Assembly (NCBI GenBank): GCA_026770705.1 | Contig: JANJGN010000038.1 | Coordinates: 4,712,001-4,776,000, forward strand | DNA length: 64,000 nt | DNA from: Isurus oxyrinchus | Lineage: Eukaryota | Direction: 5' to 3' | Part shown: one piece after another, positions 15,871 through 54,670 of the stretch | Numbering within the stretch: position 1 is the stretch's first letter | Layout: every line of letters starts with the position of its first letter | Notes under the pieces: generated by a model | Seen by the model: the letters and a program-made list of their open reading frames with translations, nothing else | What the model was told of the DNA's origin: nothing | The model's database searches: none | Translations under genes and position numbers: made by a program

Positions 15871-16757
15871 TCACTGTTTAATAAATTTAACAATTACAGA
15901 AAAGGGATATTTCACCACATTCTTCAGCTCCTTTCTGAATTGAGTCTGGGTCACTGCATAAATAGCCGTGTTGGTGCAACAACTCAGGAGCTGAAACATA
16001 AACCCCAGTTCGTGCACAAATTTAGGAAGATTTTCAGGAATAGCTTCTACCTAATATAACCTATTACAAGCAGAATAGATCATAAAGATTGCCCACAACA
16101 GGATAAAATTCCCCAATATAGCAAACAGTAAAATAATGGATTTCCTGCGTTTCTCCATCTCTGGGTCACTGGCATTCTCCCTAGTGCAGTGAACCCAGAG
16201 TCTCCTGCGGGCTCTGCTCGACACTAAAATATATCTGACAGTTAAAACATTCAACACCAAAATAAAAAAAAAGAGTTAAAATATAATGAAAAAAATCGAT
16301 TGCTGCCCACATTGATGAAAGATCAGCACCAGTCACTAATGTGCAAAACCAAGGAGCGTTGGAAATTGTATACTGACCTTCATACATAAAGTACCAGCAA
16401 GTGCTCTTCACACAGAACAGCAGACTGTTCTGAGAACGACAGCCGCTGTCTGCTCGGTGCAATAATTTGTTTTCAACTTGTGGGAATAATTGGCCAGAAA
16501 TCTATCAAAGGGGAAAGAGTCTGTGAACCAGACAGAACAATCTGTGGCTGCATAAAGCAGGACTGCATGGATATTACACACTGTAATCCTCCATATGAAC
16601 TAAAACTGAGCGCAGTAACGAATAGCAATTTGCCTGAATATGAGATCAAGGATAACGATGAGTAGATCCGCAGTTGCCATGGACATCAGGTAACGGGAAA
16701 CACTTTTTGACAGACCGCGCCTTCCCCGAGACCGGGTCACAATAGTCAATAAGTTCA
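15871..16757 (-). pseudogene. GPR139-like GPCR pseudogene, exon 2
   Basis: Acceptor ttccttacag; NLLTIVTRSRGRRGLSKSVSRYLMSMATADLL...DCSVWFT...FDRF...ENASDPEMEKRRKS...LLSCCTNTAIYAVTQTQFRKEL*; in-frame TAG at 16602-16600 plus frameshifts. Confidence 0.93.
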
Positions 16758-17509
16758 CTGTAAGGAAGAGAAAGACAGGAAATTTATTGATTAACTTAGA
16801 GCAACTTTTGCAGACTGAAATTTGAAGATTTATCCAAGGTCAGAATCTAATTACTATACCAGTGTTTGAACTTTCCGCTGGAGGGAGGGTTTCAAGTTAA
16901 ACACCATCCTGTTGTAACAGGAAACCAAATGCAGCAGCAGGTCCCAGCGCTATTTCCTGACCTTATGGTGTTCGGAGTGAAAATCACTCACCCCATTATT
17001 AGTCCTGCTCAATATCCCATGAACATGCTCCAAACTGCACGCACGAAAATTGGAAAATCATTTGTAGGATGTGCTATGATTTGTACTGAAGGAAAATGGT
17101 TCATTTTTTATTTGACAAGACAGCTGAGTGGAATAATAAGGCTGTGTAAAGAAATAAATACGGATTTGAATTCATTCATAAATTGTCCTTCAAATCAGGA
17201 TATCCGAATTTGTCTTCCTGATAATTATTGCTCTCCCAAAAGCCACAATGAACCCTGAGACTGTATCCCAGTAACACACACACTTTTGAAAAGAACAAAC
17301 GAACACGTTAGGTAAATGGATCGCTAAAGTGAAGAAAATAAATTAGAGATTGAATCAGAACTCAATACTGGCCAACAGAAAGGAGCAGCAGAGAGTGACA
17401 GCATCCCAAATTCAGGTTGGTAAGCAGGAGAGATTTTACCAATGGATCGGATGTGTGTGTTTTGGACCAGGAACTAAATTGGCCAGTGGTTGGGATTTGA
17501 GGTTGTTAC

Positions 17510-18090
17510 ATAGGAATGCAGGAACTAGGAGCAAGAGCAAGCCAATTGTTCCCTACGGCCAAGTCTAATGTAGACTAAGCCTATGGCCTTTTATCGACCT
17601 CTACTTTTCAAAACTGTCCTCATTTACATTGATGGCCTTAGAGCCCAAAGATCTGTCGACCACTTTCTTGACTGTATCGAAACAAACAGCCCTATAGATT
17701 TGATAATGCCAAAGATTCTCCACTTTCTGAGAGAACAAGATTCTCCCCATCTCAATCCTAAATGGCCAACAGCTTATTCTCAGGCTATGGGCTCGAGTTC
17801 TGTACTCCCCAGCTAAGGGAAACATTCTCTCAGCATTTACCCAATGAGGAGACTAAATAATTTTCTATGACTCGATGAGATAATCACCCATCCTCTAACT
17901 TAAAGAAAATGTGCGTCTAATTTGATTGATTGATTAGATACGTATATTGTTCAGTAGGCAAGGAGACTGAAACTGTAAACATTAATCCATATGGTTTCTC
18001 AACAATCACATGCATAATTCTATGAATAGGTTCCTTACTCGAAGACAGGGATCACTGCCATTTATTATCCTAATCACTTGCTGCAATATT
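17510..18090 (-). mobile_element. Decayed CR1 LINE 3' end
   Basis: Minus strand: FRIEMGRILFSQKVENLW (ORF 17601..17825), typical CR1 C-terminus. Confidence 0.75.
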
Positions 18091-18096
18091 GTATCC

Positions 18097-19320
18097 TATC
18101 CTCATTACAGCTTTGTTTCAAACATGGACAAAAGAGCTGAACTCCCGAGGGGAGATGAGAGTGGCTGCCCTTGACATCAAGGCAGCATTTGGCAGAGTGT
18201 AGCATCAAGGGGCCCTAGCAAAGCGTGAGTCAATGGGAATCAGAGGGGAAATATCTGCTGCTTCTAACCATACCTAGCACAATGGGAGATGGTTGTGGTT
18301 GTCGGAGGTCTGTCATCTCAGCTCTAGCAATTCACTGCAGGTTTTCTTTAGGGTAGTGTTCTCTGTCCAACATGTCCAGCTGCTTCATCAATGACCTTCC
18401 TTCCATCATATGGTCAGAAGTGGCATGTTCGCTGATGATTGCACAACGTTAAGTAGCATTAACGACTCCTCAGGTACTGAAGCAGCCCATGTCCAAATGC
18501 AACAAGACCTGGACAATACAAAGGCTTGCACGGACAAGTGGGAAGTAATTTGTGCACCGCTTAATTGTCAGGCAATGTCCATCTCCAACAAGGGAGAACC
18601 CAATCATCGCCCTTTGTCATTCAATGGCATTCCCATCAATGAATCCCCAGTATCAAACCCTGGGGTTTGCCATTGACCAGAAACGGAATTGAACGAGCCA
18701 TATAAATACTATGGCTACAAGAGCAGGTCAGAGGCTAGGAATAGTGCGATGCGTAACTCACCTCCTGATTTTCCACAGCCTGTCCACCATCTGCAAGGCA
18801 CAAGTCAGGAGTGTGGTGGAATGCTCCTCGCTTGATTGAATGGGTGCAGCATCCAAAGCACTCAAGAAGCTTGACACCATTCAGGGCAATCGTTGGATTG
18901 GCAGCACACCCAAAAACATTCACTCCCTCCACCACCATCGCACATAGCAGCAGTGTGTACTATCTACAAGATGAACTGCAGGAAATCACCAAGGCTCCTT
19001 CGGCTGCACATTTCAAACCCTGACCACTGCCATCTAGAAAGACACAATCAGCAGACAGATGTGAACACCGCCAGATGGATGTTCCCCTCCAAATCACTCG
19101 CCTTCCTGACTTGGAATTATATCGCCATTCCTTCACTGTCGCTGGGCCAAAATCCTTGGAAATCCCTTCCGATCAGCACTTTGTGTGCACATACACCACA
19201 TGGACTGTAGCAGTTCAAGAAGGCAGATCACCACCGCCTTTTCAAGGGCAACTAGTGATATGTAATAAATGTTGGCCCAGCCAACGAAGCCCATTTCACA
19301 TGATTGGATAATAATAAAAT
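18097..19320 (+). mobile_element. 5'-truncated CR1/L2-group LINE
   Basis: ALDIKAAF, GMFADDCT, QMQQDLDN, PLSFNGI; 3' tail gggcaactagtgat...aataaatgttggcccagcc. Confidence 0.92.
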
Positions 19321-19639
19321 ATATTACATGTTAGCTTTCTCTAGTTTGTGTACCTGAGCACCCAAGTTATGAAAATTTACAATTATTTACCGGTGTCTCA
19401 TCTGTTGAAACGCTGGATGAGGATAGAATGCAACTCGTCTGTGTTACTATCTCAGGGAAACTAAAGATTATTGTGCAATATTAACACAGGACAGTGATGT
19501 GTGTGTAAATTAACACGAAAGATAATTCATAAAATTAAAGGTCCTGACCTCCCATTTGGTGGTGATACTCGGATGATCAGCACTGATTGTAAATATAATT
19601 AAAGCCCTATTTTTTTCCACCCTTGCAGCATGTTTTTCT

Positions 19640-20120
19640 TACCCACGTAGTGGGGTGGGGGAGATGAGGTGTGCATGAGGTGCGAGGATGTCGGGGTGGT
19701 TAGTAGTTGTTTTGGGGATGGGCGAGTAGTTAACGTGCTTTGCAGTCGGTTGGGGGCGAATGGCTGGGCAATGGCTAGTGAGAGGGGTGCAATTGGGTCG
19801 AGGGGAAGACAATCGGGTCAGATTGCGCTTTCTGGGGTCAGTAGTTGGGGGGTGATGTGGTTTTTTTCGTGTGGGCTGAATGTGGGAGGGCTGTGCATGG
19901 GGGTTGGGCGTGCATGGGCTGCACCCCACAGTTATTCACTGACACATGCTAGAAATTAACACCTGGAAATTTCTAGGGCAAGCATGTGTCACACAGCAGG
20001 CACAAGAGTCCAAAACTGAAGTCAGTTTTGGGGTCATTGTTAGAGGGGCCCGGGTAGTACCGATATGCCCATCAGAAGTTTAAAGTTCGCAGATAATTAC
20101 CATGTATGCTCCTGGATCAA
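19640..20120. repeat. G-rich arm plus core of a foldback/MITE-like element (same family as 36960-38480 and 41290-42410)
   Basis: G-rich tract followed by atcagaagtttaaagttc, cf. cggaagtttgaatttcc (37628) and atcggaagtttgaagttcc (42269). Confidence 0.5.
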
Positions 20121-20904
20121 GATTTCCGATTGGTCCTGATGTGCAGAGCGGCAGACATTTCAATATTTACCACTGTTGGCATCGGGCGATCCAGGTTAAT
20201 GATGCAATCAGAATCAAATTCACCGCAATGGACTCCAGACACCAGCTTCAGATAGAGGGAAATTACACAAGAGGGAAATGGAGACCAGGTCAAAGAAGGC
20301 TGGAGAAGGAGGAATAACAAAAAAGAACACATTTTAAGAATTATCTTGAAGGATGATAAGTTTGTAGCGAGGACAACAGATTTAGGAGGTAATTCAGAAC
20401 ATGAAAGTCTTAATATTTCACTGTGGCCACCCATGCCAAAGGCTGCAGACATGTGGAGAAGAGGAAGGAGAGGAGTTTTGACATTAGCATAGTCACATAA
20501 GATAGAATTTGTGCCTTTGCTAAGGACGGTGTAAGAGTTGTAATAAGGGAGAAAAATGGTTAGAAGGATTTAAGCATGGTGTCCCTGGAAGGTGGGGCGG
20601 AAACGTGGGGGGTAGCAGCAGGGACAAGGAATTTGCAGAGGAAAGAGAGCTTAGAGATGGAGTGTTTGCTTGCAAGGACTGAGGCATCAGGGGTTGTTTA
20701 TTTACAAGAGCAGGGGTGATGGCTACAGATTGGAGCAGGAGAAGAACAGTGGCTAAGCAGATGGAACTATTAACTGTATCAGCAACTGAGGAACATGTTG
20801 AAGAAGTTCGGTGTTCAGCAGTTTGGTGGGAGTGCACTGAACCAGTCCCCAGCAGCAGCCACCCCCCAGCCCAACCCCCACAGCACGCCTCCCACCAAAC
20901 CAAT

Positions 20905-21400
20905 CAAAAGCTTGGAAATCTCACGCATGAAAAATGATGGAACGCTCACTACTCATGGGGATGGGTATCACAGCAACACACAATAAGCAGAATCACCTTC
21001 AAAAATGGAATAGATTTTCCATCAGTGATCGTCCATCATTAAACTCGATATTTCACCGCCTCCACCTTTGTGGATGCAGGGACAATCTCTGCATAATCAA
21101 CAACAACAAAACACCGGGCCTACTTCGACAGCACGTACCAGCACAGCAACATGCAGAAGGTGTGCAATGCCGCCAGATTCACCTTCTCTAATGCACCATC
21201 CTGACTTGGACCGATAACATCTCCCTTCATCAGAGTTCTGGAATTCCATAATAGCAGGTAGGAGCACCGTCAGCAGAGGGAATAGTTCAGCTCAGCAAGA
21301 AGACCCAGCAACAGCTTCTCAGCTCACCTCCGGCTGGGTAATAAACGGAACTTTGTCACAAGCATCCATGTCCCAAGAACACATTTTGAAAATAAAAACC
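20905..21400 (+). mobile_element. Old CR1/L2-group LINE 3' fragment
   Basis: atgatggaacgctcactactcatggg, cttcgacagcac, accatcctgacttgga, ggctgggtaataaac..ccatgtccc. Confidence 0.65.
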
Positions 21401-22060
21401 TGTGGGAGGGGGATAATGACTTACAGATCTGAATAAAAGTAATGCAGAGACAAGGGAAGGAAATTAGGTCTGTTGAAAGAAATGGGAACGGAGCCAATTG
21501 TTGGTGAGGGGAGCAAGTATTGTTGAACAATTATTACATTTTGTACCCTGTCCTAAAAATATAGATTTTGTGACTGTTAGGCAAAGCGGGAAATGGTGGA
21601 ATACAAGTTGCTTGGAGCTGAATCATTCTTGGAGATTCTCTCTTGTTCCTGCCTGCTCTGATTGCCACAGATCAGTGCAAATTACAACCTCCATCAGACC
21701 GCAAAACCAATACCTGCAAAATATATTTCATCTGTGATATTGGGTTTCAGTTCAAAGAGCAGACAGCAGCTGTTCAATATCTATAATCCATCGCTAATAT
21801 TTATTGCGTAAAATATTCAACCAGCCAAATTATGCAGAAAAAAATCAATTGAAGCAAGTCATGAGATATAAAAACGGTCCATGGAACAGCAAACACGGAA
21901 TCGACAACTGGTGAAATGCTACTTGACAGAAACGTAGGGAATTACATGCCACACGACGCAAAAATTACAAAGAATAAATTAATTAGCTCACATAAAGCAC
22001 AAGGACAGCAAACACAGTGAAAGATGTTTTATAAAATACATTTCTAAAATAATCACTCAC

Positions 22061-22157
22061 CAGGAATACCAACAGCAGCGAAGAGTGGTTAGTAAATCCT
22101 TTGTAAATTATAAATTACCCACAGGATCCGACGTTCAGCTGGAATATTCCAAAACAT
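22061..22157 (-). pseudogene. Exon 1 of the GPR139-like pseudogene at 15871-16757
   Basis: MFWNIPAERRILWVIYNLQRIY*PLFAAVGIP + G|gtgagt; phase-1 donor matches the phase-1 acceptor at 16757; YYP motif carries TAA. Confidence 0.85.
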
Positions 22158-22427
22158 GATCTCATTTTCTCTGAGATCTAATGATCGCCTTTAATATTGG
22201 GGGCCACTATACTCTTTCAAGCACTGATATACACAGTGAACACATTGCCTAGATGTAGGCAGAGAAGAGTCCCCAGTGATTCAATTTAACCATACACTGG
22301 CTGACATTAAGTACAGTCACTTAACAAACAAGATGCCTTAACCCTTTCATTCCATCAATTTCTATGGAAAAATATAATAAAAACAACATGGCATTCCTGT
22401 AAAGATAATTCATTCAAAGCAAGCACA

Positions 22428-22435
22428 TGACGTCA
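22428..22435. promoter_or_regulatory. Perfect CRE palindrome TGACGTCA ~270 bp upstream of GPCR exon 1
   Basis: Motif seen directly; function inferred from position only. Confidence 0.35.
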
Positions 22436-22719
22436 GCCACTTTTGTGAGAAACAGATTATGGAAGCTTGCAGGCTTGCAGCACACCTTGAGAAATAAATA
22501 GATTCAAATGCAGAGTTCTGATTGTTTTGGTGATAAAAATTCTGCCCAGCAATTTCAAGTTATCAATTCATTTCTCAGGCGATGAAAATAACACAAGTCC
22601 CAGGGGATGGTCAGAAGCAGTAACAGTCCTAAAGGATGTATGGTTGATGATCATCCCGTGATCAGAAAGTAAAAAGTGAACTGATAATTTGAAACTTATG
22701 TCTGGTCTAACACTAAACG

Positions 22720-23370
22720 TATAAGTGATACCTCCGAGTGACACTTATTATGGAAATGATAAAACAGTTTAACTTGAAAACTGGCCTTGCAAATGATACC
22801 CCGGTGTAACAAAAACCATGTAATTGAAATCCATGGAATATTAGTGCCCATGTAGAAAACGGACAATCTAAAATGACCTTGTGCCTGACACCACAGACTT
22901 ACAGTGATCACATAACTGATACCTAGTTGCACAGTGCTCGTTTAAATGATACCGAAATCCAGCAGTGGGTGTTTTACAGATAGTCATCAAACGGTTACCA
23001 TGGGATTGAAACCTAATGTTCTGCTGGCCTTGTATCCGACACTCCGATCTAACAGTGACCTTGTAACCAATGTCCCGATCCACAATTTACCTTGTACCAG
23101 CAGTCTGTTCTAATCGCCACCTTGTAACTGATAATCCAGCCTAACAGTGGCCTTGTAACTGGTATCATGATCTAACATTGGCCATGTACTTAATAGTCCA
23201 GACCAGCAGTGACATTTTAACTGATAATTGAATCTAACGGTGACTTTGTACCGGATGTCCCAATTTAACCCTGATCATTTATTTGAGGCTCTGGCTGACA
23301 ATGACCTTGTGACTGATATCCCAGTTTAATAGCGACTTTTTACCCGATCCTACGGCCTGAAATTGACCTT
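22720..23370 (+). repeat. Degenerate 31-bp tandem array (consensus ~CTAACAGTGACCTTGTAACTGATATCCCRRT)
   Basis: Consecutive 31-bp units from 23049: ctaacagtgaccttgtaaccaatgtcccgat, ctaacagtggccttgtaactggtatcatgat, ctaacggtgactttgtaccggatgtcccaat. Confidence 0.88.
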
Positions 23371-23918
23371 TTGTTACGTTAGTGTCATTGTTCAGATGTG
23401 TTTTCTTCAATGTAATCTTTAGTTTTGGAAATTAGAGATTTAACTGATGGCAGTGGGTACATCTGGTGACGAAACTGGCAAATGCAGCCCTAAATTTAAT
23501 GCAATGGAAACAGCCTTGGAGTTTATTATTCTTAGAAGGTTGGAGCCATGTTGACTTAAGATTTAACAGCCAGGAAGTTAAGGCCTTCATACTGCAGGTG
23601 GTCTTAATTAGCTAAGGAACAGGAACAGGACGTCTGTAGTTATTCCAATGAATTAAAAGCTATTTACGTGGTTTACCAGAATTAAGGAAAGTTTTGGAAT
23701 TAACAGATAATTATGTTGCCATTCTACACGGTAACAGACCATGTGTGTCATGTTTATGTGAAGATATCTGGAGCTCAGTTGAGAGTTTAGAAAAAGATGG
23801 AGTGCAAAAATATATTTGTGATCAAAATTCAGTTCAAGTTCGCGGTGTTTGCTTCAAGAATTAAAACTTTTGTCAGCTGTAGGGATTTCATACTCTCTCA
23901 ACCACATGGCCTCACAGT

Positions 23919-23943
23919 CACACACATGCAAACGTGTGTGTGC

Positions 23944-23994
<51 letters not shown>

Positions 23995-24420
23995 ACAGAT
24001 ACAAATGCAGATATACACAACCCCATAAGCAGACTCATGTTGGACATGTAAACATATGCATGAATATGTTCATTACTATCCTGCAACGAACACAAAAATA
24101 TAGATCTAAAGACACACTATCATGCACAGTAATGCAAATACATAGGCATTTCCATACACACATTAACAAATTGACACATGGGCACTTAGATGAACAGGCA
24201 ATAGCATTTTCACAAACACTGAACAAGAAACGACGATGAATATATTTACACACCTACAATAACACAAACACATAGAAACACACATTTTAGTACACATGGA
24301 CAACTAAACAGACATAAACACATAGTTATAAACATCCATCAACACATAAAGGCACGCCATAACATATTCACACGCTCATGCAGGCAAAATTATTAACATA
24401 GCAAACAGAGACCCTAAAAA
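23919..24420. repeat. (CA)n microsatellite and decayed CA-rich tract (continues 25630-25830 after the Penelope insertion)
   Basis: Direct reading. Confidence 0.9.
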
Positions 24421-24517
24421 GTCATAATATCAGATACATTAACAAGCAAGGACGGAAACAAACGCAAAAATAGCTGGAAAACTCCACAGGTCTGACAGCA
24501 TCTGCGGAGAGGATCAC

Positions 24518-24556
24518 AGTTAACGTTTCGAGTCCGCATGAATCTTCATCAGAATT
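24518..24556 (-). ncRNA. Minimal hammerhead ribozyme motif (Penelope-associated)
   Basis: AATT-CTGATGA-A-GATTC-atgcg-GACTC-GAAAC-GTT-AACT; catalytic core intact, one mismatch each in stems I and II. Confidence 0.65.
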
Positions 24557-25489
24557 AAGGAAAATAGGAATGAGGTGAAATATGAACTGGTTGAAGGGGT
24601 AGGGACAGGTAGAGCTGGATAGAGGGCCAGTGATTGGTGGAGGCAAAGAAGAGATTGCCAAAGATGTCATAGGCAAAAGGACAAATGAATGTTAACGGTG
24701 GTGATGTTAGCAAAGGAACATGCTAATGGTGCTATTAAGGGTAGAAAGCAGGACGAGCAAGTGACAGATAGCCTCCGTGGGACTGTGGTGGGGGAAAGGG
24801 ATCGAAATAGGCTAAAAGGTGGAGGTAAAACAATGAGTGGAAATTAAATTAAAAATATTAGAAATTGGTGGAAAAAGAAAAACATATTAAAAAATATTTT
24901 TTTAAATTATAAAGTATTGCAAATATTGGGCTATACGCAGACACCCATCTCTCCGGAAGCATGACTCAGACCTCCTGGTCACTTGCCATTTCAACTCACC
25001 ACCCTGCTTTCATGCCCACATGTCCGTCCTTGGCCTGCTGCAATGTTCTGGGAAGGTCAACGCAAACTGGTGGAACAGCACCTCATCTTCTGATTAGGCA
25101 CTTTACCGACTTCCAGACTTAACATTGATTTCAACAACTTCAGATCATCAATTTTCTCCTCCATCCCCACCCCCTTTCCGATCCCCTATTTCCAAAAATT
25201 TACAATTTTTAAAATATGATTTTTTAAAAATATTTTCCTTTTCCCACCTATTTCAATTATTTTTAAATTTATTTCCATTCATATTTTTCTTCACCTTTTA
25301 GCCTATTTCGGTCTCTTCCCCCCACCGCAACCCCATCACATTTCCACCATCAACACCCCTTTATCCTTTACTCGTTGACATCATTGGAAATCTCTTCTTT
25401 GCCGCCACCTATCATGGGCCCTCTATCCAGCTCTACCTATCCCAACCCCCTCAACCAGCTTATATTTCACCTCATTTCTATTTTTCCTC

Positions 25490-30851: not shown

Positions 30852-30921
30852 ATGCACGGATCACCGAAAGACCTTCTGTCTGCCATTTATTATCCAGTCC
30901 TTGCAGCTCTCGGGGTTCCAG
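30852..30921 (+). pseudogene. GPR139-like GPCR (single nonsense codon), exon 1
   Basis: MHGSPKDLLSAIYYPVLAALGVP + G|gtaaag; 70 nt, same length as exon 1 at 48535-48604. Confidence 0.92.
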
Positions 30922-33074: not shown

Positions 33075-33985
33075 CTAATCTGGCGGTGATTGTGATCCTT
33101 TCTCGAGTGAAATGCGGTATCTCCACCTGTATAACCTATTATTTACAATCCCTGGCGGTGACAGATCTCCTGCTCATTATAACCGCTGTGATATTGAACC
33201 GGATTACTGGTATTTATTTCCCACTCAGTTTCCTGTCAATCACACCAGTATGCAGTCTCTGTGAAGCCCTAATATATTCAGCCATAGACAGCTCTGCCTG
33301 GTTAACTACAGCTTTCACCTTTGATCGATTTGTGGCCATTTGTTGCCAGAAGCTGAAAGTAAAATGTTGTTCCAAAAAAACGGCGGCACGGGTTATAGGG
33401 ACAATCTGCGCAATCAGCTGTGTCAGAAACACCTTCCAGTATTTTATATACGAATCTTTGTACATAATTGACAATGTGCCCTGGTTCTGCGATGTAAAAG
33501 TGATATTTTATACCTCACTTGCATGGATCGCCTATGACTGCATTCATCACATTTTAACCCCTTGTCTCCCATTCATTCTGATTTTACTGCTCAATGTCCT
33601 GACAGTCAGACACATTCTCGCAGCCAGTAGAGCTCGCAGGAGACTCCAGACCCGGAGAAATGGAGACAATCAGCGTGACCCTGAGATGGAGAAGCGGACA
33701 ATGTCCATCATTTTACTCTTCTGTGTATCGGGAAATTTCATCCTCTTATATTTGTTAATTTTTATAACTTTCCTCTATGTGCAAATTGGAAATGTTAAAT
33801 AATTTTCAAGCTCTGAAATCAATCTTTCAATATTCATTCTTGAGGAAAAAGCATACATGCTTCAGTTTTTGAGTTCCTGCGTCAACCCGTTTATTTATGC
33901 AGGGACCCAGAGTAAATTCAGAGAGGAGTTAAAGAATGGGGTGAAATATCCACTACTTGAAATTGTTAAATTATTTGGACGATAA
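33075..33985 (+). pseudogene. GPR139-like GPCR, exon 2, with a single premature TAA at 33800-33802 (loss of TM7/helix 8)
   Basis: Acceptor tctctttattgcag; AFTFDRFVAICCQKLK; frame continues after the TAA with LSSCVNPFIYAGTQSKFREELKNGVKYP...FGR*; 911 nt, collinear with 46378-47288. Confidence 0.93.
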
Positions 33986-42410: not shown

Positions 42411-42414
42411 AATG

Positions 42415-44430: not shown

Positions 44431-46377
44431 TACATCAAGGCAATTGTCTACCAACGAGATATAGAGACTAGGGTTCAATTGAAAATATCAAAACTGAGAT
44501 TGATAGGATTTGGTACCAACTGCTTTAAACTAAGGTGTCCAAATGGAGACATTCTGCATATTAGCAATGCACTAATTGAAGGACAGGGAAGATTCCCGGA
44601 CCAGAATATCCTTCTCCTTTTGCTATGGGTCAACAACTTCGGGATAGGATCCAAAATTGCACTGGTAAATGCATAACTGAAACCAGAAACCAGCTGTAGT
44701 CAGCAATTTCTGCAAAGCAGCGAGAAGGGAACAAGGAGGCATAGAACAGCACCAAGCAGATTGGAAAAATGGTCGCCAGTATAGTAAGTATGACTATATT
44801 TCAATAGTTAGTGTGACAGCAAAAAGAATGTGATGCACACTGGACAGAGAGTGCTCCAATGCAATGGATGTGGACAACGTTTTAACTAGTTAGCACAATA
44901 TGAATAAATAAACGCATCGCACCATTCACAGTGGGGAGAGGTCTTGCACGTTTTCAATGACTGGACGAAGTTTCAACAAATCATCCAACTTCAGTAGCAC
45001 AAGGATGCGGTATACTGCGAAACATTGCAAATGAGGACACTGTAGGACGGGACTCGCTTCCTCAGCCTGCCTGCAAATTAATCGTTATATTCCCACTGAG
45101 AAGAAGTTGTTCACATGTTGCATGGAGTAGGGAAGATGTTAACAGTTGTTTCTTCTTCTCGCAGTCCGTTATGTTTAAGAGGTAGACGTAGGAAAAACCT
45201 TTCAAATGATATGTAGTTGGTGAGTGAGTCAGTCGTGCATTTCAATTGCTGACAGATGAGTGAAATTTCAAGTAGCAGCAGAATTTCAATTATGTTCTTA
45301 CTAATGATGTTAATCACATCTGGGGTTATTTAATAATCTGGACAAAGGGCATATAAAGCGAAGGCTAATGCATCAGTTTCCACCTCGACATTGAAAGACC
45401 TTTCGAGGTATAACAAATAATTACTTTCTTACTCACGATCTTCCGCTGGCAACAGTGACAAATATTGAGACCTGTGCCGCATTTTGCATTTGGGGAGCAG
45501 GAGAACTGCCATACCCCAAGCGCATGTGCAATACTCACCCGAGATTGGGATAATGATCTGTTGCAATGAGTAGCCAATAACTTCTCTGGCGTGAGATTTT
45601 GTGGCTATCAGGATGGCAAGAAATGTGTTTGTGCATGGTCAGTGGGGAGCGGCAGTGCTGTAAAGTGTGGCGAGTCATTCAAAAGCTCATTGGCTTTGAC
45701 AGAACCAAAAAATCTCGCCGCCGAGAGGGGCCATAAAATTTTGAATTTGCCATTACATTTGATGAGTTATTTTTAATAATTCTGTTGTTCACGATTGATG
45801 CCCGTTGAAAATAAGACACTGTAGTTAGACTCGATTTATGCTGTTTGATAACACTGGAAATGTCATCGTAATTGTCCGATTGAAAGTGTAGAAGGCGAAT
45901 TACTGTTGTTCATTTTTTCCTGCCCCTTATTCCTATGTTTAATGACAAGGGTTAGCGAGTGTGAAGCGGTGACTAGTGAGTTGAGAACAATGCATGGGAG
46001 TAGCATTTGTTACCGTTTCAGAACGCCTTTTACCTATAAGGTATAAACTACACAAAGCAATAACATTGAGGTTCCTCCCTTAAATTGTTAAATTTTGGTA
46101 TCCAATATCAGATCTAAGCCGGACTCTCTGTCTCCCACATGGATTTCCAAGGCCCTGGGGGCTGGTAGGGATGTACCAGGCCCCTGCTAGCACGAGGAAG
46201 ACAACTAAAAACTAACTGGGAGCAGGCAACGTTCTTTATACATTGTTAAATTCACACGGAGGAAAAGGGACTCAAAGCAAATGACGCTGCTTCCGGGAGA
46301 CAAAACTTTTGTGTGAGACAAACTAAAGCAGTAATGGATGGAACACAAATTATGACTTGTGTTGAATTTTATTGTTA

Positions 46378-47288
46378 TCATCTTTTAAATAATTTTACAA
46401 GCAGATTCAATGGGAATTTCACACCATTCTTTAACTCTTCTCTGAATTTACTCTGGGTCCCTGCATAAATAAATGGATTGACGCAAGAACTCAGGAGCTG
46501 AAGCATACGTGCGCTTTCCTCCATAAGAAAATTTGATTCATTGATATTGGTAGAGTCTGCATAGCTAAGATTCGCAATTCGGACATAGAGGAAGTTTATA
46601 AGTCTTAACAAATGTAACAGGATGAAACTGCCCGAGATACAGAAGAGCAAAACCATGGATTTCCTTCTTTTCTGCATCTCTGGGTCACTTTGATTCTCTC
46701 CATTGCTCTGGATCCGGAGTCTCCTGTGGGCTCGACTGGCCGCTACAATGTGTCTGATGGTCAGAGCATTGAGCAGTAAAATAAGGAAGAAGGAGAGGCA
46801 AAGGGTTAAAACGGCGATTATGCTTTCATAAGCGACCCATTCAGGTGCCATATAAAATATTGATTTTGAATTGCATTGCCAGGGTATATTGTCAATGATA
46901 AAGGCAGGCTCACACCTAAAATACAAGGGAATGCTTTTAACGCAGTTAAGTACAGAGACAGTTGCTATCACCGCAGCCGCCATTTTCTTAGTGCAATATT
47001 TAATTTTCAGCTTCTGGCAGCAAATGGCTACAAATCGGTCAAAGGTGAAAGCCACTGTTACCCAGACAGAAGAATCGATGACTCCATAATTTAGCACAAG
47101 TCTGACGCTGAAGACCGGAGTGATGGCCAGGAGACTGAACGGGAAATAAATACCTATAATCTGGTTTAATATCACAACTGTGATCTCGACAAGAAGATCC
47201 GTCACGGCCATGGACATCAAATAGTAAGTGATACATTTGGAGAGACCGCATCTTCCTCGAGTCAGTATCACAATCACGACCAGATTAG
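46378..47288 (-). CDS. GPR139/GPR142-like class A GPCR, exon 2 (intact; spliced protein 326 aa)
   Basis: Acceptor cgctgtcacag; open frame with 7TM pattern, MAVTDLL (TM2), FTFDRFVAIC (TM3), NPFIY (TM7), FREEL (helix 8); intron within GIP-A-NL as in GPR139 GLPAN. Confidence 0.93.
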
Positions 47289-48534
47289 CTGTGACAGCGA
47301 AACGCAGCCAGCAAATAGCCAATTTTGGGAAAGAAATTTAGAACATAAAATGTTGGAAATTCTCAGTCAGGCAGCAGTTGAAAAGAGAGGAACAAGTTAG
47401 CATGTCAGAAAGATGATCTGGAGGAAAATATCCTAAAACACAGCAATCTGTTCTGTACTGTCAGCAACACTAAGGGCCAACTCAAGGTGAAAATTGAACG
47501 TCCTGCATTGTGACCCTGAAATACAGTCAATGTTGTTCTCATTCAACGTTTAGAGACGGGAAAATATAACAATACTCTGAAACATTGGAAAATCGAAGGT
47601 TAACAAATACATTATAGAGCTTGAAAAAAGTTCAGCAAAAAAAAAGCTACTACTTAACTGAAAAGAAGATGAAGGAGATGTGATGCATCTGAGTTGTAAC
47701 AATTCGAAGTTAAAGGAACAAGGCTTCACAGCCACGAGTAAAACTAATCATGCTTACTATGGCTCTGTTTACAGCAATCTCACTTTTGAGTCAAAAGGTG
47801 TAGCGTTCAAGCCCAACTGTTGGACTTCAGCAACGTTGCACTGCCGGATATGCTATATTTCAGCTAAAACAAAAGGCTGAGGACCGGTCGTGAATACAAA
47901 ATCTTACTTAAGAAATAGCTGTTATTCACATTCCAGCGCAAGGAGCAATATATGCACATGGCAAAGTGAGGTAATTTAACAGCTGTGTCAATAATACCAT
48001 AGAGCTACATTTACAGCGTGATAAATCAGCCATGGTGACAGTGTCAGTAATACAATTGATTTACATTGCACTGTGATATTAGTGTGCTAAATACTTCGCC
48101 CACATTAATAATGACAATAACAACATCTAATTACGTTTAGACTGAGAGGCGGCACTGCTAAGTTGGCAGAAAAGTTTTATTTAAAGAGATGAAATGGCAT
48201 TGGCGAAGCAAACATAGTAATCCCTGAAATGGAAGTAAGTATAGTGGCAATGGGAAGAAACTGTTCTCGTGAAGGGGAGAAATTGTAGCCTTAAAGTGGA
48301 GAAAAGAGACCAGTAATGACCAGTAATATTGCAAGGAAAGGGAAGGTTTAATCTCATTTAAAAGAAGAATGCACCAAACGTGGAGATAAGGATACTGCAA
48401 AAAAGGGAAAACATTATAAAAATACAAATTATCCTGTTAATGGGGTGAATCATAGAGAAGCAGTACAGCTAAATTAAAGAAGTGATAGAGTGAAAAATGA
48501 TTCTGGTAACTGGTAACTAACCCTAATACTTTAC

Positions 48535-48604
48535 CTGGAATACCGATAGCTGCAAGAACGGGATAGTAAATGACGAACACCAGACCTTCTGGTATCCCAT
48601 GCAT
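48535..48604 (-). CDS. Exon 1 of the intact GPR139-like GPCR
   Basis: MHGIPEGLVFVIYYPVLAAIGIP + G|gtaaag, phase 1; in-frame upstream ATGs at 48613 and 48664 are alternative starts. Confidence 0.9.
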
Positions 48605-48989
48605 TTCTCTCATAAGCTCCAAGTGGGCTCTGTGCTGCACCGAAAGACTTTTAGATTTATACATGATGTCGGACTCTAGGGAGACAATGAGAAGGTTTGC
48701 CTTTTTACATTAATTACACTAACTGAAAAAAACATTTTAGTGCAGCTGCTGCCACGCTCGCGTTTATATTTTTGATGGAATGGAATCTGTTTTCAAGGAC
48801 ATTGGCGCGACAGGAGAGTACGGTCCAAGTTGCATTTTTGCCTAAAATTTAAATAACAAGCCAAATAAGCGATTGTAACTGTGAAAGTGAGCACTGTGCA
48901 CGAGCATCCATGGCTTTAAACTCAGCAGGAAAACATTACAAAGTTCTCACTCTTGATCATTTTTCAGCCCGTGTGAACACGGATCACGT

Positions 48990-50590
48990 TAATGTGGCTC
49001 CCTTTCCCTTCTGGAATGAGGAACCAATCAGTAGCCATCCATCATCAGCCTCTCTGCCTGCTTGGACGTCAACTCACGACGAAAACTCTGTAAATGAAAC
49101 GCCAATGCTATGGGTATTGGCTTGTGTCCTATTTCTGTTTGGCTTTTGGATGGATTTGTAGCAGAATTATTGATCCAGTCCCACTCAAGCACCTCCATCA
49201 CACTTTTGCCTGGTATATTCATGACCAGATCAGTATTGATCTCGTTCAACCCCCAAACTGGAAAATGAGGTTACGTTTGCTTTGGAATGTAACCCTCCCC
49301 ATGCACTTACTTGCTCCATGTTTGAAATTTATATTTCCTTCTGCAGCTTTGATGTGGACACATCGGGGAATTGGCTATGGCCCAATATTCAACAGAAGCT
49401 CACCAACAACCAGCTATCTTGAATACACATCCATGCACATCGTTTACTGGAAAGGAACTTTTCCGTTCTCTCAGAATCTCAGTTTCTGCTGAATATGTTC
49501 GATTATCCCTTCTAGCTCTCTCCAATAGAGCTTCCAATTACTTCAGCCGAGTATTTCCAGCGCACCGTGGTTGACAGAACGCAGTGCCGTACATGTAACA
49601 TGTCTCACACTTCTGCTTTCACACCTTCTCCCCCTCCAGGATCCACAGTAGGCTTCTCCTTGCCCTTGCCTACCATTCCACACATCTCTTGTATCATTTG
49701 GTCCACCTCTGCATTTTCAAACTCATCCGGCATGTTGTCACTGCCCAATATGCCCAACTCACTTCTACTATTTAACATTGAGAATGGGTCTTTGCTCCAC
49801 TCTGCACTTGTCTCCTCCAAAGTCAATCCAACCCTTCCTTTTCCGAAGAACGTTCCCATGCACGCAATGAACATGCAACGCCAGCCCCTGTCTCCATGCC
49901 CTTCTCTCTGTCCTACGTCCCAAACAATGCTTCTAAATGGAAAATCGATTTGTTTGAACTTCTGTCCATTGAGTATACCCTGTTCACTGCTCAATATGCA
50001 GCCTGCTCCACATTCTGGAGGTTAAATGTAGATTGGTGATAATTTCTCAGGTACATCCATTCGGTCCACAAGTGTGATCTTCTGGTCACTTGTCACCCTA
50101 ATTATCTGTTCCATTCTCACTTTGACATGACTGTCATTGAACCCTCCTACTGCTCCAAGGAAATGGAACCTGTGCTCCAGGAGTAAAATCTCATATTTCC
50201 TTAAGGCACTTTCTAGGCTTTTGGATTTTCCATAAATTTCAACAATCGTGATCACACGATTTTTCTTCCTTCTTTGCTCTTTGTTATTGCGTTGGGAAAA
50301 CATCTCTTGATTTTGATTCTGTTATAAACAGTTTGCCATCTTTTAGACATTCCTCTTCTGCTTTTCCTTGTTCCACTTTGACTTCCACCATCACTGCTTT
50401 TGTCATTTGATTTCTCCTGTTTTCCCATTTACCAGAAGCATCTCCTTTTGAACCTTTTTCCCCGAAAACCGTTTTTTGCCTCTACACTTGCATTAAAACT
50501 GTTCCATCTGTAACTTTTGACTGATCTGATGAAAGGTCACATGCTGCCGGATATCTTGAGTATTTCCATCGTTTCCTGTTTAATTCCATT
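48990..50590 (+). mobile_element. Old Penelope-like element (RT C-terminus, GIY-YIG, pseudo-LTR)
   Basis: FPFSQNLSFC (cf. IPFSQFLRLRRIC), decayed GIY-YIG region ~50090-50230, terminus ctgatgaaaggtca..atgctg..gagtatttcca. Confidence 0.7.
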
Positions 50591-50612
50591 CAGGGTGTTT
50601 ACATTCAGTGTA

Positions 50613-51565
50613 GAAATGTGCAGCTCGGCACGGTTATATTCACTGTGCGCATGCCTGGTTTGGCATGGTTACTTCCATTGTGGACTAGTTCAATTCAGTT
50701 AGTGTAGCCATGTCAATCCCGGCAATAACGAAAGTGCACAGGTGTGTGAATTTACATTTTGTGTGGCAAGATCCAGTTCAGGACGTGTGTGCTTGGTGCT
50801 TTCAGTCTAAGCTCAGTCCACTCACATTCAGAGAAGACAACCTCCTGTTGAGCATGATTAAATTAATGATGGAGCACTCCAAATCAACATGGTTATATGC
50901 CATGTAGAAAGTCCTGTTCAGCTCGTTAGCAATCACTGTTTAGTGGAAAACCAGTTTAGGGGATTATCACGCTGGTGTGACTGTCCAGTTCAGTAAATTG
51001 CATTCACTGCATTCAGGTTAAATTGTGCACATCTCCACTCAGTACGAACAGGCCAATTTCTATCCTGTTACACTAAATGTACATGGACGACTTTTTGCCC
51101 GATTATTGTCAACTTTGTCCAGTGGAACACAACTACGTACAATGTGCACAGCCCCGGCTGTGAACACTTTCTTTCTTGCAGTGGAAAATTTCACTTCAGC
51201 GTGATTACATTCCATATAGAATAATCAATTTCATTACTGCTGTATTCGATGGAGACAGGACTGGCCGAGCATGGTTATGTTTCGTGTAGATTTATGAAAG
51301 TCTGCTCGGTGTTACTAAATGTGTACATGGACATTTGCATTCAGACTGGTTCAGTTCTGCATTCTTACTTTTAATTTAAGCTTCTGTGGTTCACTGTGGT
51401 GGACAGTCCCAATTGATCACTGTGAACCTTTTAATTTCCCAGCAGCTATGCTTCGTGTGCAGATGTCTTGATCAGTGAGGTTACATTCAATTTGCGTAAT
51501 TGCAGTTCTGTAGCATGATTTTCAGTGCAGACTGTTCTCGGCCGGAGAGATTTTATTCATTGTGA
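50613..51565 (+). repeat. Degenerate 35-bp tandem array (~GGTTACATTCAGTGTGGACAAGTCCAGTTCAGCAT)
   Basis: gtttacattcagtgtagaaatgtgcagctcggcac / ggttatattcactgtgcgcatgcctggtttggcat / ggttacttccattgtggactagttcaattcagtta. Confidence 0.75.
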
Positions 51566-51818
51566 TTTTCCACGACAAAATCTAGGTCTATTGTTACTGA
51601 TAAAGGAAGGTTCATAGGCAAAAGTACCAGGGGATGAGGATGTTCTGGAGACTTTGGAATTGTCTTCTCCAGAAAACAAGAGACGGCAGGGGCACTAAAT
51701 ATATTCAAGGACTAGTTAGACAAATTATTGATCGACAGGAGATCCGATGGTTACTCAGTCTGGCAGGAAAACGGAGTTAAGGCCAGGATTACATCAGTCA
51801 TAAACTCCGATGGGCATT

Positions 51819-52670
51819 ACACAGCGTTGACAACAAAATGCATCTTAGGAGAATTGAATGGAGCAGTTAACAGCAGCAACAGAGTTAAAAGTGCTCTTCA
51901 TAACAGTTAATCGATTGCAACTATTTGATAAATTTACGAATAAACATGTGGAGGGTAAACAAAAATATGGAAAAATACATACCACTATCATTTATAGTTT
52001 CACGCCAATTAGAAAATATGCTGATCTGTAATGGTTAAGCTCAAATCGCCACAAAACAACACCCTCCCACAAATTATATTCCTTCTCCCACAGTTTGCTC
52101 TTTCAGTTATCCAACAACAACCCTTCGCAATGTCCTCTTCTTAACCAAAATATTTACTGTATCACATGGCTTATTTTTGGCAGCACTTTGGATACAAAAC
52201 TTACTGTTGCTTCCTTTTGAGCCTTCTAAATACGGTGAAAAGCTGAGACCCAAATACAAATCGTGCGAATCAGCTGTCACCCCTGTCAATTGAACTGTAT
52301 TCACATTACCGATCAACAAATTAAATGAGCTTTGTACATACCACAGCCATCGCGAGTTAAATTTATGTCGATATCAATTTAAATTAACATCTAGGCATGT
52401 AAAATAAATGACCTGTTTAACTAAGAAATTCTGGTTTTAATGACATTATTGAAGTAACAATTAAACTACATTGTGCAGCATTTGTATCATTACCAAAACG
52501 TCCGTCAACACAAGGCACAGAAATCGCGGACACACATAGAACAATCTTGAATGTTTTGCTGTTGGAGGACAGCCAAACATCCGGAGAAGCTAGACAGTAA
52601 ACATCTGACCCTCATGCTTCACAGTTGAACAAACATTGAAAAGACCTAATTCCGGAAAAACAAAACGTAT
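51819..52670 (+). repeat. ~850-bp direct duplication, copy A (possible ancient GPR139-like relic)
   Basis: About 80% identical by eye to 53701-54580; strong acceptor ttccttctcccacag ending at 52093; traces EKLRPKY, TIKxIVAA. Confidence 0.85.
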
Positions 52671-52709
52671 AATTCAGATTCAGAATGTTTCCGTTTCGTA
52701 TTTTGAGTG

Positions 52710-52861
52710 GCTCAGGAAACTGACTGGAAAATAAACAGCCGTAAACCGGCTTAATACCAGTGTAATGATAATAACTTGGAGATCTGTCACCGCCATGGAC
52801 TCTGCGTATCTGGAAAGACCACATCTTCCTCGGGAACGGATCACGATAGTCAACAAGTTAG
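52710..52861 (-). pseudogene. GPR139-like exon 2 5' fragment (TM1-TM2 only)
   Basis: Acceptor (ct)n cccttacag then ANLLTIVIRSRGRCGLSRYAESMAVTDLQVIIITLVLSRFTAVYFPVSFLS; small in-frame deletion; truncated next to duplication copy A. Confidence 0.9.
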
Positions 52862-52869
52862 CTGTAAGG

Positions 52870-52879
52870 GAGAGAGAGC

Positions 52880-52914
<35 letters not shown>

Positions 52915-52915
52915 A
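52870..52915. repeat. (GA)n microsatellite forming the polypyrimidine tract of the fragment
   Basis: Direct reading. Confidence 0.95.
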
Positions 52916-53700
52916 GGGAAGAATTAGTGCTGAATCTCCCAGCTACAACGTCCGTTTGGCGGGAGAATGGTATGGCACATGGACCATCAATACTTCATTC
53001 AACGCTGGAACTGATTACTTTGCCAATGTATTAATGCTGGTCCATTTTTTATTTATATTGTCGCAGATGAAGTGGAAGTCGGAATATAAAATGACACAAA
53101 ACATTACTTTCCGACTGATGTAAATTTTATGTAATCTAGAAGTAGAAGGAATTGATCTTCATTAAATTGACAAAAGGACAACCTGAGAATGGCATAAAAA
53201 TACAGATAAAAGCTCAGTACATTTATTCATTTATAAATACAGTAAATAATAACATTATGAAACGTTAAACCGCTATAACAATGAAAGCAATCGAATGACA
53301 GGACATAAGATATGGGTAATAACGAATTCCTAATAAATATCAGAAGGAACCAAGGTACGATCAAAAAGAAAATTTGGACTTTGCCCCTGTGGAAACAAGT
53401 CAAAGCGCATCAGAGGCTTTTTTGCAGTTCAGTGATTGCAGTAGTGGAAGATCAGGTCTCGCAGCAGTAGTGTGGATTTTCAACTGATAAAACAGCAAGG
53501 CCTTGGCTTAGAGCCTCGTCAGAAGGACGACAGAATAGACAGTGCTGGACAATCTCAGGGGCATGGAGCTCGGCAATGGACACGAGATCGGAAGTAGGGA
53601 TCAAACCCAAGGCTTTCCGAATGATCACTGAGGTTTCAAAATTTAGTTGAGCTAAATAAAGTGGCTATGAGCATAATGAATTCCGGCTTCGAAGGTTATC

Positions 53701-54670
53701 ACACAGCCTTGACAACAAAGTGCACTTCTAAAGAGAATTGAATGCAGCTGTTAACCGCAGCAACGGAGTTAAAAATGGTCTTCATAACAGATCATCGACT
53801 GAAATGATTGATGTTAAAGTTACGCATTGCAAATTGAACAGCAATAAACATGTGGTGGGTAAACAATAACATGGAAAATACTTACCACTATCATTTATAG
53901 TTTCACGCTAATTAGAAAATATGGTGACGTGCAATGGTTAAGCTTAAAGCGCAGAGAAAAAATCTCTTCCACAAATTGTATTCCTTCTCCCACAGTTTGC
54001 TCATTCAGTTATACAACAACAACCCTTCGCAATGTCCTGTCCTTCTGTAAACTATTGACTGTACCACATGGTTTATTTTCGGCAGCAATTTGGATACAAA
54101 ACTTATGGTTGCTTCATTTTGATCCTTCTAAATGCAGTGAAACTCTGAGGCCCAAATACAAATCCTGCGAATCAGCTGTCACCCCCTGTCAATTCAACTG
54201 TATTCGCACGATCCATCAACAAATTAGATGAGCTTTGTACACACCGCAACCATCGTGAGTTAAATTTACATCGATATCAATGTAAATTAATATCTAATCA
54301 TTTAAAATAAATGACCCGTTTAATGAAGAAATTGAGGTGTAAATTACAATATTGAAGTAACAATTAAACTATACTATGCAGCATCTGTATCATTGCCAAT
54401 AATCCTGTCAACACAAGAAACAGAACGCCTGGGAACTCATAAATCAGTCTTGAATGTCTTGCCATTGGAGCGCAGCCAAAAACCTGTAGAAGCTACATAG
54501 TAAACATCTGACCCTCAAAGATTGACAGTTAAGCAAAGGTTGATGAGAACTAATTCCGGGAAAAAAATATGTAGAATACAATGAACAATGCCAGATAGTA
54601 CAGGAAGCTACAGAGACAAGACGCATGCCCCTGTAAAAGCCATTACCCAGACACAAAACTAGAGAGACAT
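53701..54670 (+). repeat. Duplication copy B (possible ancient GPR139-like relic)
   Basis: Aligns with 51819-52670; traces IDCTTWF......D, TLRPKY, AITQTQ (cf. AVTQTQFR). Confidence 0.8.

Follow-up and report, generated by a model that had tools for sequence, protein, structure and literature searches.

In mammals, the MRGPR and formyl-peptide receptors are lineage-specific, clustered class A repertoires with which sensory and immune cells detect peptides and small molecules. The Srw/FMRFamide-receptor-like expansions of invertebrates are used as chemoreceptors, and clusters from molluscs, nemerteans and arthropods, both FMRFamide-receptor-like and Srw-bearing ones, are among the look-alikes of the receptor family analyzed here. 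Sharks are said, in the part of the literature covered, to rely for smell on a few dozen V2Rs and to have almost no odorant receptors (ORs). GPR139 and GPR142 are single-copy receptors with a short N-terminus that belong to a wider branch of peptide-type class A receptors; in the supplement rows of PMC9605692 that were available, the little skate has gpr139 and gpr142 listed separately. The Trp/Phe site of GPR139 consists of F3x33, H5x43, W6x48, N7x38 and R6x51, and a change to His at 6.48 abolishes activation by these amino acids (PMC5430874). A conserved non-mammalian GPR139-like orphan receptor is found in sharks, coelacanth, ray-finned fish, amphibians and reptiles, mostly with one row per species. 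It probably corresponds to a candidate among the receptors named NMOGPR or 'orphan 139-like' (PMC5207463 Table 1) and GPR210A/B (PMC6504862).

The window analyzed here (the whole stretch of DNA, 64 kb) contains four copies of one class A GPCR family between positions 15871 and 52861, together with an orphan exon 1. A profile search of the window gave 229-523 bits for copies A, B and C and an E value of 1.9e-15 for copy D, which excludes chance, and placed A, C and D on the minus strand and B on the plus strand. The receptor features are as follows.

9065 to 9134, plus strand: copy E, an orphan exon 1 of 23 codons with an ATG and a phase-1 GT donor
15871 to 16757, minus strand: exon 2 of copy A, a pseudogene with two stops and two frameshifts, of the NT-type TM7 subfamily
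22061 to 22157, minus strand: exon 1 of copy A, interrupted by a premature stop; a GT donor is present
30852 to 30921, plus strand: exon 1 of copy B
33075 to 33985, plus strand: exon 2 of copy B, with a single premature stop at 33800-33802 (ECL3) that removes TM7
46378 to 47288, minus strand: exon 2 of copy C, an open frame; an AATAAA begins 5 nt past the stop
48535 to 48604, minus strand: exon 1 of copy C
51564 to 51636, minus strand: second remnant of copy D (TM4-ECL2), 73 nt, nhmmer E 0.0013
51805 to 52676, no strand assigned: a 0.9 kb segment interrupting exon 2 of copy D, about 81% like 53687-54580
52710 to 52861, minus strand: 5′ fragment of exon 2 of copy D (TM1-TM2), with an intact AG acceptor in front

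In each of copies A, B and C a short exon 1 ends at a phase-1 GT donor, and an AG acceptor precedes a long exon 2. The sequence-only reading had claimed at least four paralogs in mixed orientation with a common two-exon structure; the number and the orientation were borne out, and the structure holds for these three copies, while exon 1 of copy D was searched for near 54670 and not found. The proposed cluster end at 54670 lies just past the edge of the duplicated 0.9 kb segment (54580-53687), within which the search found no receptor remnant. The limits 15871-54670 also leave out copy E, for which the profile search found no matching exon 2 on the plus strand before copy B. Copies B and C, taken to be collinear, are in fact inverted, tail to tail. 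Their estimated identity of about 60% was close to the measured one (195/303 residues, 64%; 73% in DNA), and of three motifs described as nearly invariant between them the first and third are identical but the middle one differs at several positions. Copy A is of the NT type in TM7; this motif, however, marks its side only loosely because among the representatives NT is the majority form of the family and NP the minority. The local cluster is mostly dead: a two-exon gene was duplicated in tandem and in inverted orientation, after which stops, frameshifts and truncation set in.

In a search beyond the window, 2447 of 4601 candidates matched at E≤1e-10. Among the best 120 of these that were listed, 119 came from named sharks and 80 from the horn shark Heterodontus francisci, in records of five lengths. 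At 50% identity, 133 clusters reached E≤1e-30, and 18 of the 20 representatives looked up from the main part of the list belonged to named sharks, skates or a stingray, the other two carrying no species. These counts indicate an expansion of this class A GPCR family in sharks and rays. Its database name in their genomes is 'probable GPR139', and a white shark genome paper reportedly mentions extra GPR139 copies; a search of the literature on sharks, which covered genome papers and their supplements in part, found no paper describing the family. The Pfam 7tm_1 domain scored 65-66 bits in copies B and C and was present in 71/71 relatives. AF2 modelled a close relative as a 7TM bundle (pLDDT 75.7), and a fold search with it matched class A receptors. 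D2.50, R3.50 and N7.49 are invariant in 71/71 aligned paralogs, and the cytoplasmic half is conserved.

The position of the family was evaluated by profile scores and by two trees, a quick one and a careful one of 38 of the 85 rows. Against the family profile, the conserved non-mammalian relative reached a median of 172 bits, the amphioxus receptors 110-126, the TRH receptor 55 and human GPR139 52. In the reverse direction, the profile of the relative gave a median of 192 bits for the family, 187 and 215 for the named amphioxus receptors, and 99 for human GPR139. By profile score the family does not lie closer to GPR139 than the other GPR139-like lineages or the amphioxus receptors do. In the careful tree, from which GPR139 and GPR142 were absent, the family grouped with a salamander gene at 100/99, and this group joined the conserved relative with 88/86 support, short of the starred level; copy A grouped at 100/100 with members from Heterodontus, Stegostoma and Pristiophorus. 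As far as the scores go, the family would be a branch separate from GPR139/GPR142, next to the conserved orphan receptor, its nearest widespread relative. A position outside the GPR139/GPR142 clade, which the sequence-only reading had named as evidence against itself, is thus what the scores give, with the family still inside the wider GPR139-like branch.

The Trp/Phe-binding residues were not kept either. The family has Y in 80% at the position of F3x33, H in 45% at H5x43 and W in 15% at W6x48. At N7x38 the Asn is replaced by Y, F or I (position 7.39 is Y62/F34/I4), and at R6x51 by F, L or Y, Arg not being among the four commonest residues at 6.51. Copy C carries His at 6.48. The proposed link to aromatic amino-acid sensing through GPR139/GPR142 is therefore unsupported, and Trp/Phe agonism appears unlikely for most copies.

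The divergence of the predicted pocket was then compared between paralogs and orthologs. The predicted pocket sites came from a general list of 7TM pocket positions and were numbered by an alignment anchor rather than from a ligand-bound structure. Among 71 paralogs, which are not independent because they were drawn from the 120 closest matches, mostly of one species, the 30 pocket sites had a site rate of 1.35, against 1.00 for the 85 remaining outer TM sites (p=0.012). The contrast was maximal at zero label shift, and an entropy version of the test gave p=0.001. Among 30 orthologs of the conserved relative the order was reversed, with 0.53 in the pocket and 0.85 at the other outer TM sites (p=0.003). 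The fastest predicted pocket sites of the family (3.29, 3.32, 5.42, 5.43 and 6.51) are mostly near-fixed in this single-copy relative, in which E2.61, Y3.33, R6.51, Q6.55 and D7.36 are found at 100%. A pocket that is fastest among paralogs and slowest among the orthologs of the relative fits a ligand-diversified repertoire; the pattern is expected of any such family and is not specific to chemosensation.

Between copies B and C, at a dS of 0.74, the overall dN/dS was 0.33, with 0.17 for the inner TM and 0.61 for the pocket, so that selection acted on these frames through most of their existence. Because the pocket value is below 1, positive selection is not shown, and relaxed constraint gives a similar picture; ECL3 reached 1.21 on 26 non-synonymous sites in this pair, the only one with DNA. 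Profile counts, broken copies and site rates uphold the earlier proposal that the family evolves by birth and death in cartilaginous fishes and diverges mainly in the pocket; the excess in the pocket that it had asked for was found.

We therefore favor, with a probability of roughly 0.62, the reading that this locus is a mostly dead local cluster of a shark- and ray-expanded class A family, separate from GPR139/GPR142, which is likely a sensor repertoire for many ligands. Since variation is greatest at the predicted binding pocket, the family likely senses a range of chemicals. Each live copy would couple a different small-molecule or peptide ligand to one G-protein output that all copies may share, and gene birth and death would renew the repertoire as in the odorant, MRGPR and formyl-peptide receptor families. 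The family resembles the OR, TAAR/TARL, V1R and V2R repertoires in being large, clustered and multi-copy, with pseudogenes and a pocket that varies among paralogs and is conserved in the orthologs of the single-copy relative. It differs in that 0/71 members match the OR, TAAR, V1R, V2R or T2R Pfam profiles at E≤0.01, and in that the shark coding region has an intron. The likeness to MRGPR and formyl-peptide receptors is a functional analogy only: these belong to another class A branch, and FPR2 was no more than a generic fold match at 15% identity. Srw was found in 0/71 members and a weak Srx match at E≤0.01 in 16/71, the shark expansion being independent of the invertebrate ones. As to tissue, outward chemosensation (nose, taste, skin) and surveillance by leukocytes or barriers are about even. 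On this reading copy C is probably in recent decay and not representative of the working members.

An outward repertoire of olfactory, taste or skin cells for amino acids or peptides, which would offset the few odorant receptors of cartilaginous fishes, is possible at odds well short of even. It agrees with the size of the repertoire and the variation of the pocket, and the cluster lies in a position similar to that of mammalian ORs among TRAV segments, as described in the accessible part of PMC2275272. However, in the portion of PMC10116579 available, catshark olfactory neurons seem without exception to be microvillous cells positive for Go/TRPC2 that express V2Rs robustly, and it is V2Rs that likely sense amino acids; the state of the Trp/Phe site, with His at 6.48 in copy C, also argues against this reading. 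The short N-terminus, which had been taken as a sign of a chemoreceptor, was rejected as sensory evidence because that of the conserved single-copy relative is about as long (around 25 residues). The RNA runs and expression tables covered yielded no sign of the family in a sensory tissue, and no RNA run carried half of the copy C words. A lone contig of 1317 nt, from a run guessed to be RNA with no tissue recorded, matched a paralog in two short pieces. A coral metatranscriptome run was rejected as expression evidence, its matches being scattered short pieces found also in non-coding DNA. Two sequencing runs with full cover (30/30 bins) show only that a relative carries the region.

Three TCR alpha/delta-like V segments with recombination signals, absent from the sequence-only reading, occupy 55.4-64 kb and point into the receptor cluster.

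55354 to 55644, minus strand: V3, an antigen-receptor V segment with an open frame (V-set E 2e-8), a perfect heptamer and a 22-nt spacer (55390-55354)
60785 to 61126, minus strand: V2, a TCR alpha/delta-like V with a frameshift near its 3′ end and a degenerate 23-spacer signal from 60823
63736 to 64000, minus strand: V1, a TCR alpha/delta-like V cut by the window end, with a degenerate heptamer and a 23-nt spacer from 63774

In each case a V-set is followed by a signal with a spacer of 23(±1), as in TCR alpha/delta-type V segments, those of V1 and V2 being degenerate; for V3, one such match occurred over all 300 shuffles. Of 43 PDB matches of V2, 40 were TCR chains, 38 of them labelled alpha or delta. 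V1 matched antibody constructs and TCR alpha chains, and the best 60 matches of V3 were all antibody chains or constructs. No shark relative of V1 was found among longer proteins (nine candidates), and no linked D, J or C segment within the 64-kb window.

The receptor cluster begins 2.5 kb beyond the signal of a V segment. This proximity, with all three segments directed into the cluster, speaks for an immune or barrier repertoire of leukocytes or epithelia for microbial or damage-derived peptides or metabolites, in the manner of MRGPR and formyl-peptide receptors, for which we likewise put the odds well below even. Among 66 long gene models, single members were fused to TRIM, integrin alpha-X-like, trypsinogen and uromodulin-like domains, suggesting such neighbors elsewhere; V-set fusions, however, occurred in 0/66, and non-immune fusions (hexokinase, sodium channel, C2H2 fingers) were found too. 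Location is also not function: the 5′ end of mammalian TRA/D has OR genes scattered among its TRAV segments, according to the same part of PMC2275272. The 4,750 characters available of a nurse shark spleen supplement do not mention the family. An ancient linkage of receptor and TCR is unsupported, because papers on the salamander TCR mention no receptor of this kind near TRA/TRD.

Unlikely, in our estimate, is a mostly neutral amplification, in which one or a few working neuroendocrine receptors sit in duplication-prone regions and most copies drift to loss. Three of the four copies are broken, an orphan exon is present and the neighboring V segments are partly broken too. Only copy C retains an open frame (326 codons), as had been claimed, but its status as intact is itself suspect. 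C3.25, a Cys in 118/120 top matches and 84/88 covered representatives, is Phe (codon 47112-47110), and both TM5 prolines are lost (P5.47 is Leu, P5.50 is Ser). Copy C deviates at 10 of 86 conserved columns, against a family median of 2; ten was reached by 1/71 paralogs. The estimated probability of no stop over a short neutral phase is 0.19-0.43, indels not counted, so that an open frame is plausible after such a phase. Tandem duplicates also rise with genome size in elasmobranchs, according to the accessible part of bioRxiv 10.1101/2025.06.08.657570. Drift, however, predicts no rate excess of the pocket over neighboring outer TM sites, nor does it fit the inner-TM dN/dS of 0.17 at a dS of 0.74 or subfamilies common to several shark orders.

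True GPR139/GPR142 duplicates that retain aromatic amino-acid agonism, as the database name and the joint best PDB match of copy B (human GPR139, 30.9 bits) might suggest, are very improbable given the profile scores, the separate skate genes in the available rows of PMC9605692 and the altered binding residues.

Returning to the many-ligand repertoire, we propose tentatively a stronger form: an unrecognised chemoreceptor repertoire of well over 100 genes per genome, independent of OR, TAAR, V1R and V2R, which would derive from the non-mammalian orphan branch, with one cluster interspersed in a TCR alpha/delta V array. The conserved orphan has mostly a single row per species and a conserved pocket; the shark family, by contrast, has many copies and its pocket varies. 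A pocket-diversified family of which a single species has at least 80 distinct copies in one subfamily, masked by a misleading database name, would alter the tally of chemical sensors in sharks; if expressed in leukocytes, it would instead be an additional innate receptor repertoire. The neighboring TCR V segments offer a way to study how duplication-prone regions come to be shared by receptor clusters and antigen-receptor loci.

Six-frame translation and profile searches identified one receptor gene of the class A GPCR type, present in the window as four copies (A to D) and one orphan first exon (E).

Receptor copies in the window
Copy A: exon 1 at 22157-22061, exon 2 at 16757-15871; minus strand; one stop in exon 1; exon 2 carries two stops and is frameshifted twice
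Copy B: 30852-30921 and 33075-33985; plus strand; a single premature stop at 33800-33802
Copy C: 48604-48535 and 47288-46378; minus strand; 326 codons, open
Copy D: minus strand; a TM1-TM2 fragment with an intact acceptor and a short TM4-ECL2 remnant
Exon E: 9065-9134; plus strand; solitary exon 1 of a fifth family member, donor intact

The sequence-only reading had described at least four paralogs of two exons each. Four copies indeed occur, on both strands, and A, B and C possess both exons, but exon 1 of copy D was searched for in the window and not found. The two pieces of copy D are split by a 0.9 kb segment, the duplicate of which lies just upstream. This pair (53687-54580 and 51805-52676) is 81% identical, and its second copy breaks up exon 2 of copy D. 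No partner of exon E was found nearby; it could in principle be spliced to exon 2 of copy B, 24 kb downstream. Copies B and C have 195 of 303 residues in common, close to the earlier by-eye estimate of roughly 60% identity, and A shares 134 of 288 residues with each of them. Because contigs of a related organism cover 30/30 bins of the region 30.5-49.5 kb, the arrangement is no quirk of a single assembly. Repeats found elsewhere within the window make up about 22% of it, a reverse-transcriptase fragment included. This LINE fragment (10956-11456, Pfam RVT_1) has kin near 3.0-4.4, 13.8-14.2, 18.1-19.3 and 40.7-41.3 kb, and LINE-like sequence also holds a 293-nt inverted repeat (2987-3279 and 3965-4257, 98% identity, 685 nt between the arms).

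Copy B, with its stop read through, was used as the query for the family search, and 2447 of 4601 candidate proteins reached E≤1e-10. Of the best 120 of these 2447, all but one (119) belong to named sharks, 80 of them to Heterodontus francisci; most carry the name ‘probable G-protein coupled receptor 139’. A family profile, built from the 71 of these 120 with near-standard length, gave 133 clusters (50% identity) at E≤1e-30. The species was looked up for 30 of the 150 clusters listed. The 20 sampled from the main part comprised 18 from sharks, skates or a stingray and two without species; the ten from the lower-scoring part were genes of a salamander, a coelacanth, a teleost, two amphioxus, an anchovy and a caecilian, and three without species. 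The receptor family is real, large and under-described. Several gene models fuse its members (database proteins P0092, P0134, P0157, P0193, P0201, P0231, P0253 and P0421) to C2H2 fingers, a hemopexin-type domain, hexokinase, a sodium channel, an integrin alpha-X-like protein, trypsinogen, a uromodulin-like protein or TRIM domains; these are likely annotation read-through, revealing varied neighbours. In axolotl, TRB is flanked by trypsinogen.

Copy C was examined against this family. Its codon 47112-47110 replaces the TM3 disulfide cysteine C3.25 (class A residue numbering) by Phe, a position occupied by Cys in 118 of the 120 best matches and in 84 of the 88 representatives covering it (95 examined). 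Both TM5 prolines, present in 115/120 and 117/120 best matches, are missing. Copy C deviates at 10 of 86 conserved columns, where the family median is 2 and only one of 71 members reaches 10. The probability of finding no stop in its frame after a short neutral phase is 0.19-0.43, a figure that leaves out indels. Since the open frame is compatible with such a phase and these conserved residues are lost, copy C is likely in decay. The claim of a single intact copy therefore stands for the reading frame, which C alone retains, but not for C3.25 and the TM5 prolines, and the entire local cluster may be dead.

The coelacanth gene led to a non-mammalian GPR139-like orphan receptor (P0224 and its orthologs), called here the conserved relative. 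It occurs in sharks, fishes, amphibians and reptiles, mostly as one row per species, with no mammal or bird name among the 120 matches listed. It likewise bears the name ‘probable GPR139’, and its polar pocket (the predicted ligand cavity) is fixed, which suggests a single conserved ligand. The family profile scored human GPR139 at 52 bits, slightly under the TRH receptor, and the conserved relative at a median of 172 bits. With the profile of the conserved relative, human GPR139 was clearly the best solved match (99 bits); higher scores went to the shark family (median 192) and to the two named amphioxus receptors (187 and 215). On the scores of 52 against 172 bits, GPR139 identity of the shark family was rejected; the profile scores indicate that the family belongs to a wider GPR139-like branch but probably split very early from GPR139/142. 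In a tree whose rows do not include GPR139, the salamander gene was the first to group with the shark family (100/99), followed by the conserved relative (88/86); a clade restricted to cartilaginous-fish members had weak support (80/64). A quick tree of 85 rows agreed. The salamander gene (P0217, P0272, P0275), itself conserved, is the only bony-vertebrate gene found in the 100/99 clade, which suggests losses in other lineages. The residues required for activation of GPR139 by Trp/Phe, as defined in PMC5430874, are not kept: position 7.39 carries Tyr, Phe or Ile, 15% of the family have W6.48, and Arg is outside the four commonest residues at 6.51. Placement within GPR139/142, with a link to aromatic amino acids, had been suggested for the cluster; neither the profile scores nor these residues support it, and the ortholog table of PMC9605692 lists a separate gpr139 and gpr142 for the little skate. 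Non-mammalian relatives have already been named NMOGPR and ‘orphan 139-like’ (PMC5207463, Table 1) and GPR210A/B (PMC6504862).

Residue numbering relied on conserved anchors together with the helix boundaries that an AF2 model gives for a close relative. The pocket was defined by 30 positions, which we take to be the class A cavity sites of the general class A literature. Among the 71 paralogs (74% mean identity), entropy was 1.23 in the pocket, 0.82 in the other outer TM positions and 0.52 in the inner TM positions (p=0.001). This order was reversed in the conserved relative (0.79 against 1.10; 30 orthologs of the 120 listed, 56% mean identity). Tree-based site rates for pocket versus other outer TM were 1.35 and 1.00 among paralogs (p=0.012), and 0.53 and 0.85 among the orthologs (p=0.003). 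Sliding the labels gave a maximal contrast at zero, with shoulders at plus/minus one. Between B and C, dN/dS rose from 0.17 at inner TM sites to 0.41 at the other outer TM sites and 0.61 at pocket sites. The pocket-focused divergence first noted by eye is thus borne out, and the contrast supports ligand diversification; it does not prove positive selection and has no bearing on tissue. The N-terminus has 24 residues ahead of N1.50 in 68 of 71 members and mostly 25-27 in the conserved relative; since this single-copy receptor matches it in length, the short N-terminus, which had been counted as a chemoreceptor trait, does not point to a sensory function.

The shark family thus combines duplication, decay, a conserved cytoplasmic half, a variable pocket and a separate branch. 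We infer, with a probability of about 0.6, that the live copies form a repertoire and would each respond to a different ligand. Gene duplication and decay would renew the copies while the cytoplasmic half stays conserved and the pocket varies, and every live copy would couple its own ligand to a shared G-protein output. Within such a repertoire, outward chemosensation is a tentative possibility, nearly level with immune or barrier surveillance; against the nose, catshark olfactory neurons are apparently all Go/TRPC2 microvillous with robust V2R expression (PMC10116579).

Three antigen-receptor V segments lie upstream of copy D on the minus strand, all directed at the receptor cluster.

V segments beside the cluster
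V3: 55644-55391 (with signal to 55354); minus strand; open, V-set domain; perfect heptamer and 22-nt spacer
V2: about 61126-60824 (with signal to 60785); minus strand; frameshifted; degenerate 23-spacer signal; TCR alpha/delta-like
V1: 63736-64000, cut by the window end; minus strand; degenerate heptamer and 23-nt spacer; TCR alpha/delta-like

A perfect signal of the V3 type was matched once in total over 300 shuffles. For V3, each of the best 60 PDB matches is an antibody chain or construct; TCR chains make up 40 of the 43 matches of V2 (38 labelled alpha or delta), and V1 matched antibody constructs and TCR alpha chains. A further V segment, a J motif and a consensus 12-spacer signal were sought within the 64-kb window and not found. 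Given this orientation and the lack of other segments in the window, the cluster either forms part of a TCR alpha/delta V array or adjoins V segments that have been displaced. The 5′ end of TRA/D in opossum, human and mouse has odorant-receptor genes scattered among its TRAV segments (PMC2275272), so the position of the shark cluster is a parallel to these odorant-receptor genes and not evidence for an immune role. A literature search on shark TCR and olfactory receptors yielded nothing beyond this opossum paper.

Mostly neutral amplification is unlikely but still a real rival to the repertoire, because elasmobranch tandem arrays enlarge with genome size (bioRxiv 10.1101/2025.06.08.657570).

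Our search of a literature set with few subscription papers found no description of the family in cartilaginous fishes, and the available passages or supplements of shark and skate papers do not mention it. Marra and colleagues, in the white shark genome (2019), reportedly pointed out GPR139 copies in the tens and proposed that they serve the senses. If that paper did report such copies, the expansion would already be known, and the present work would add the separate phylogenetic position of the family, a pocket test with controls and the location next to TCR-type V segments.
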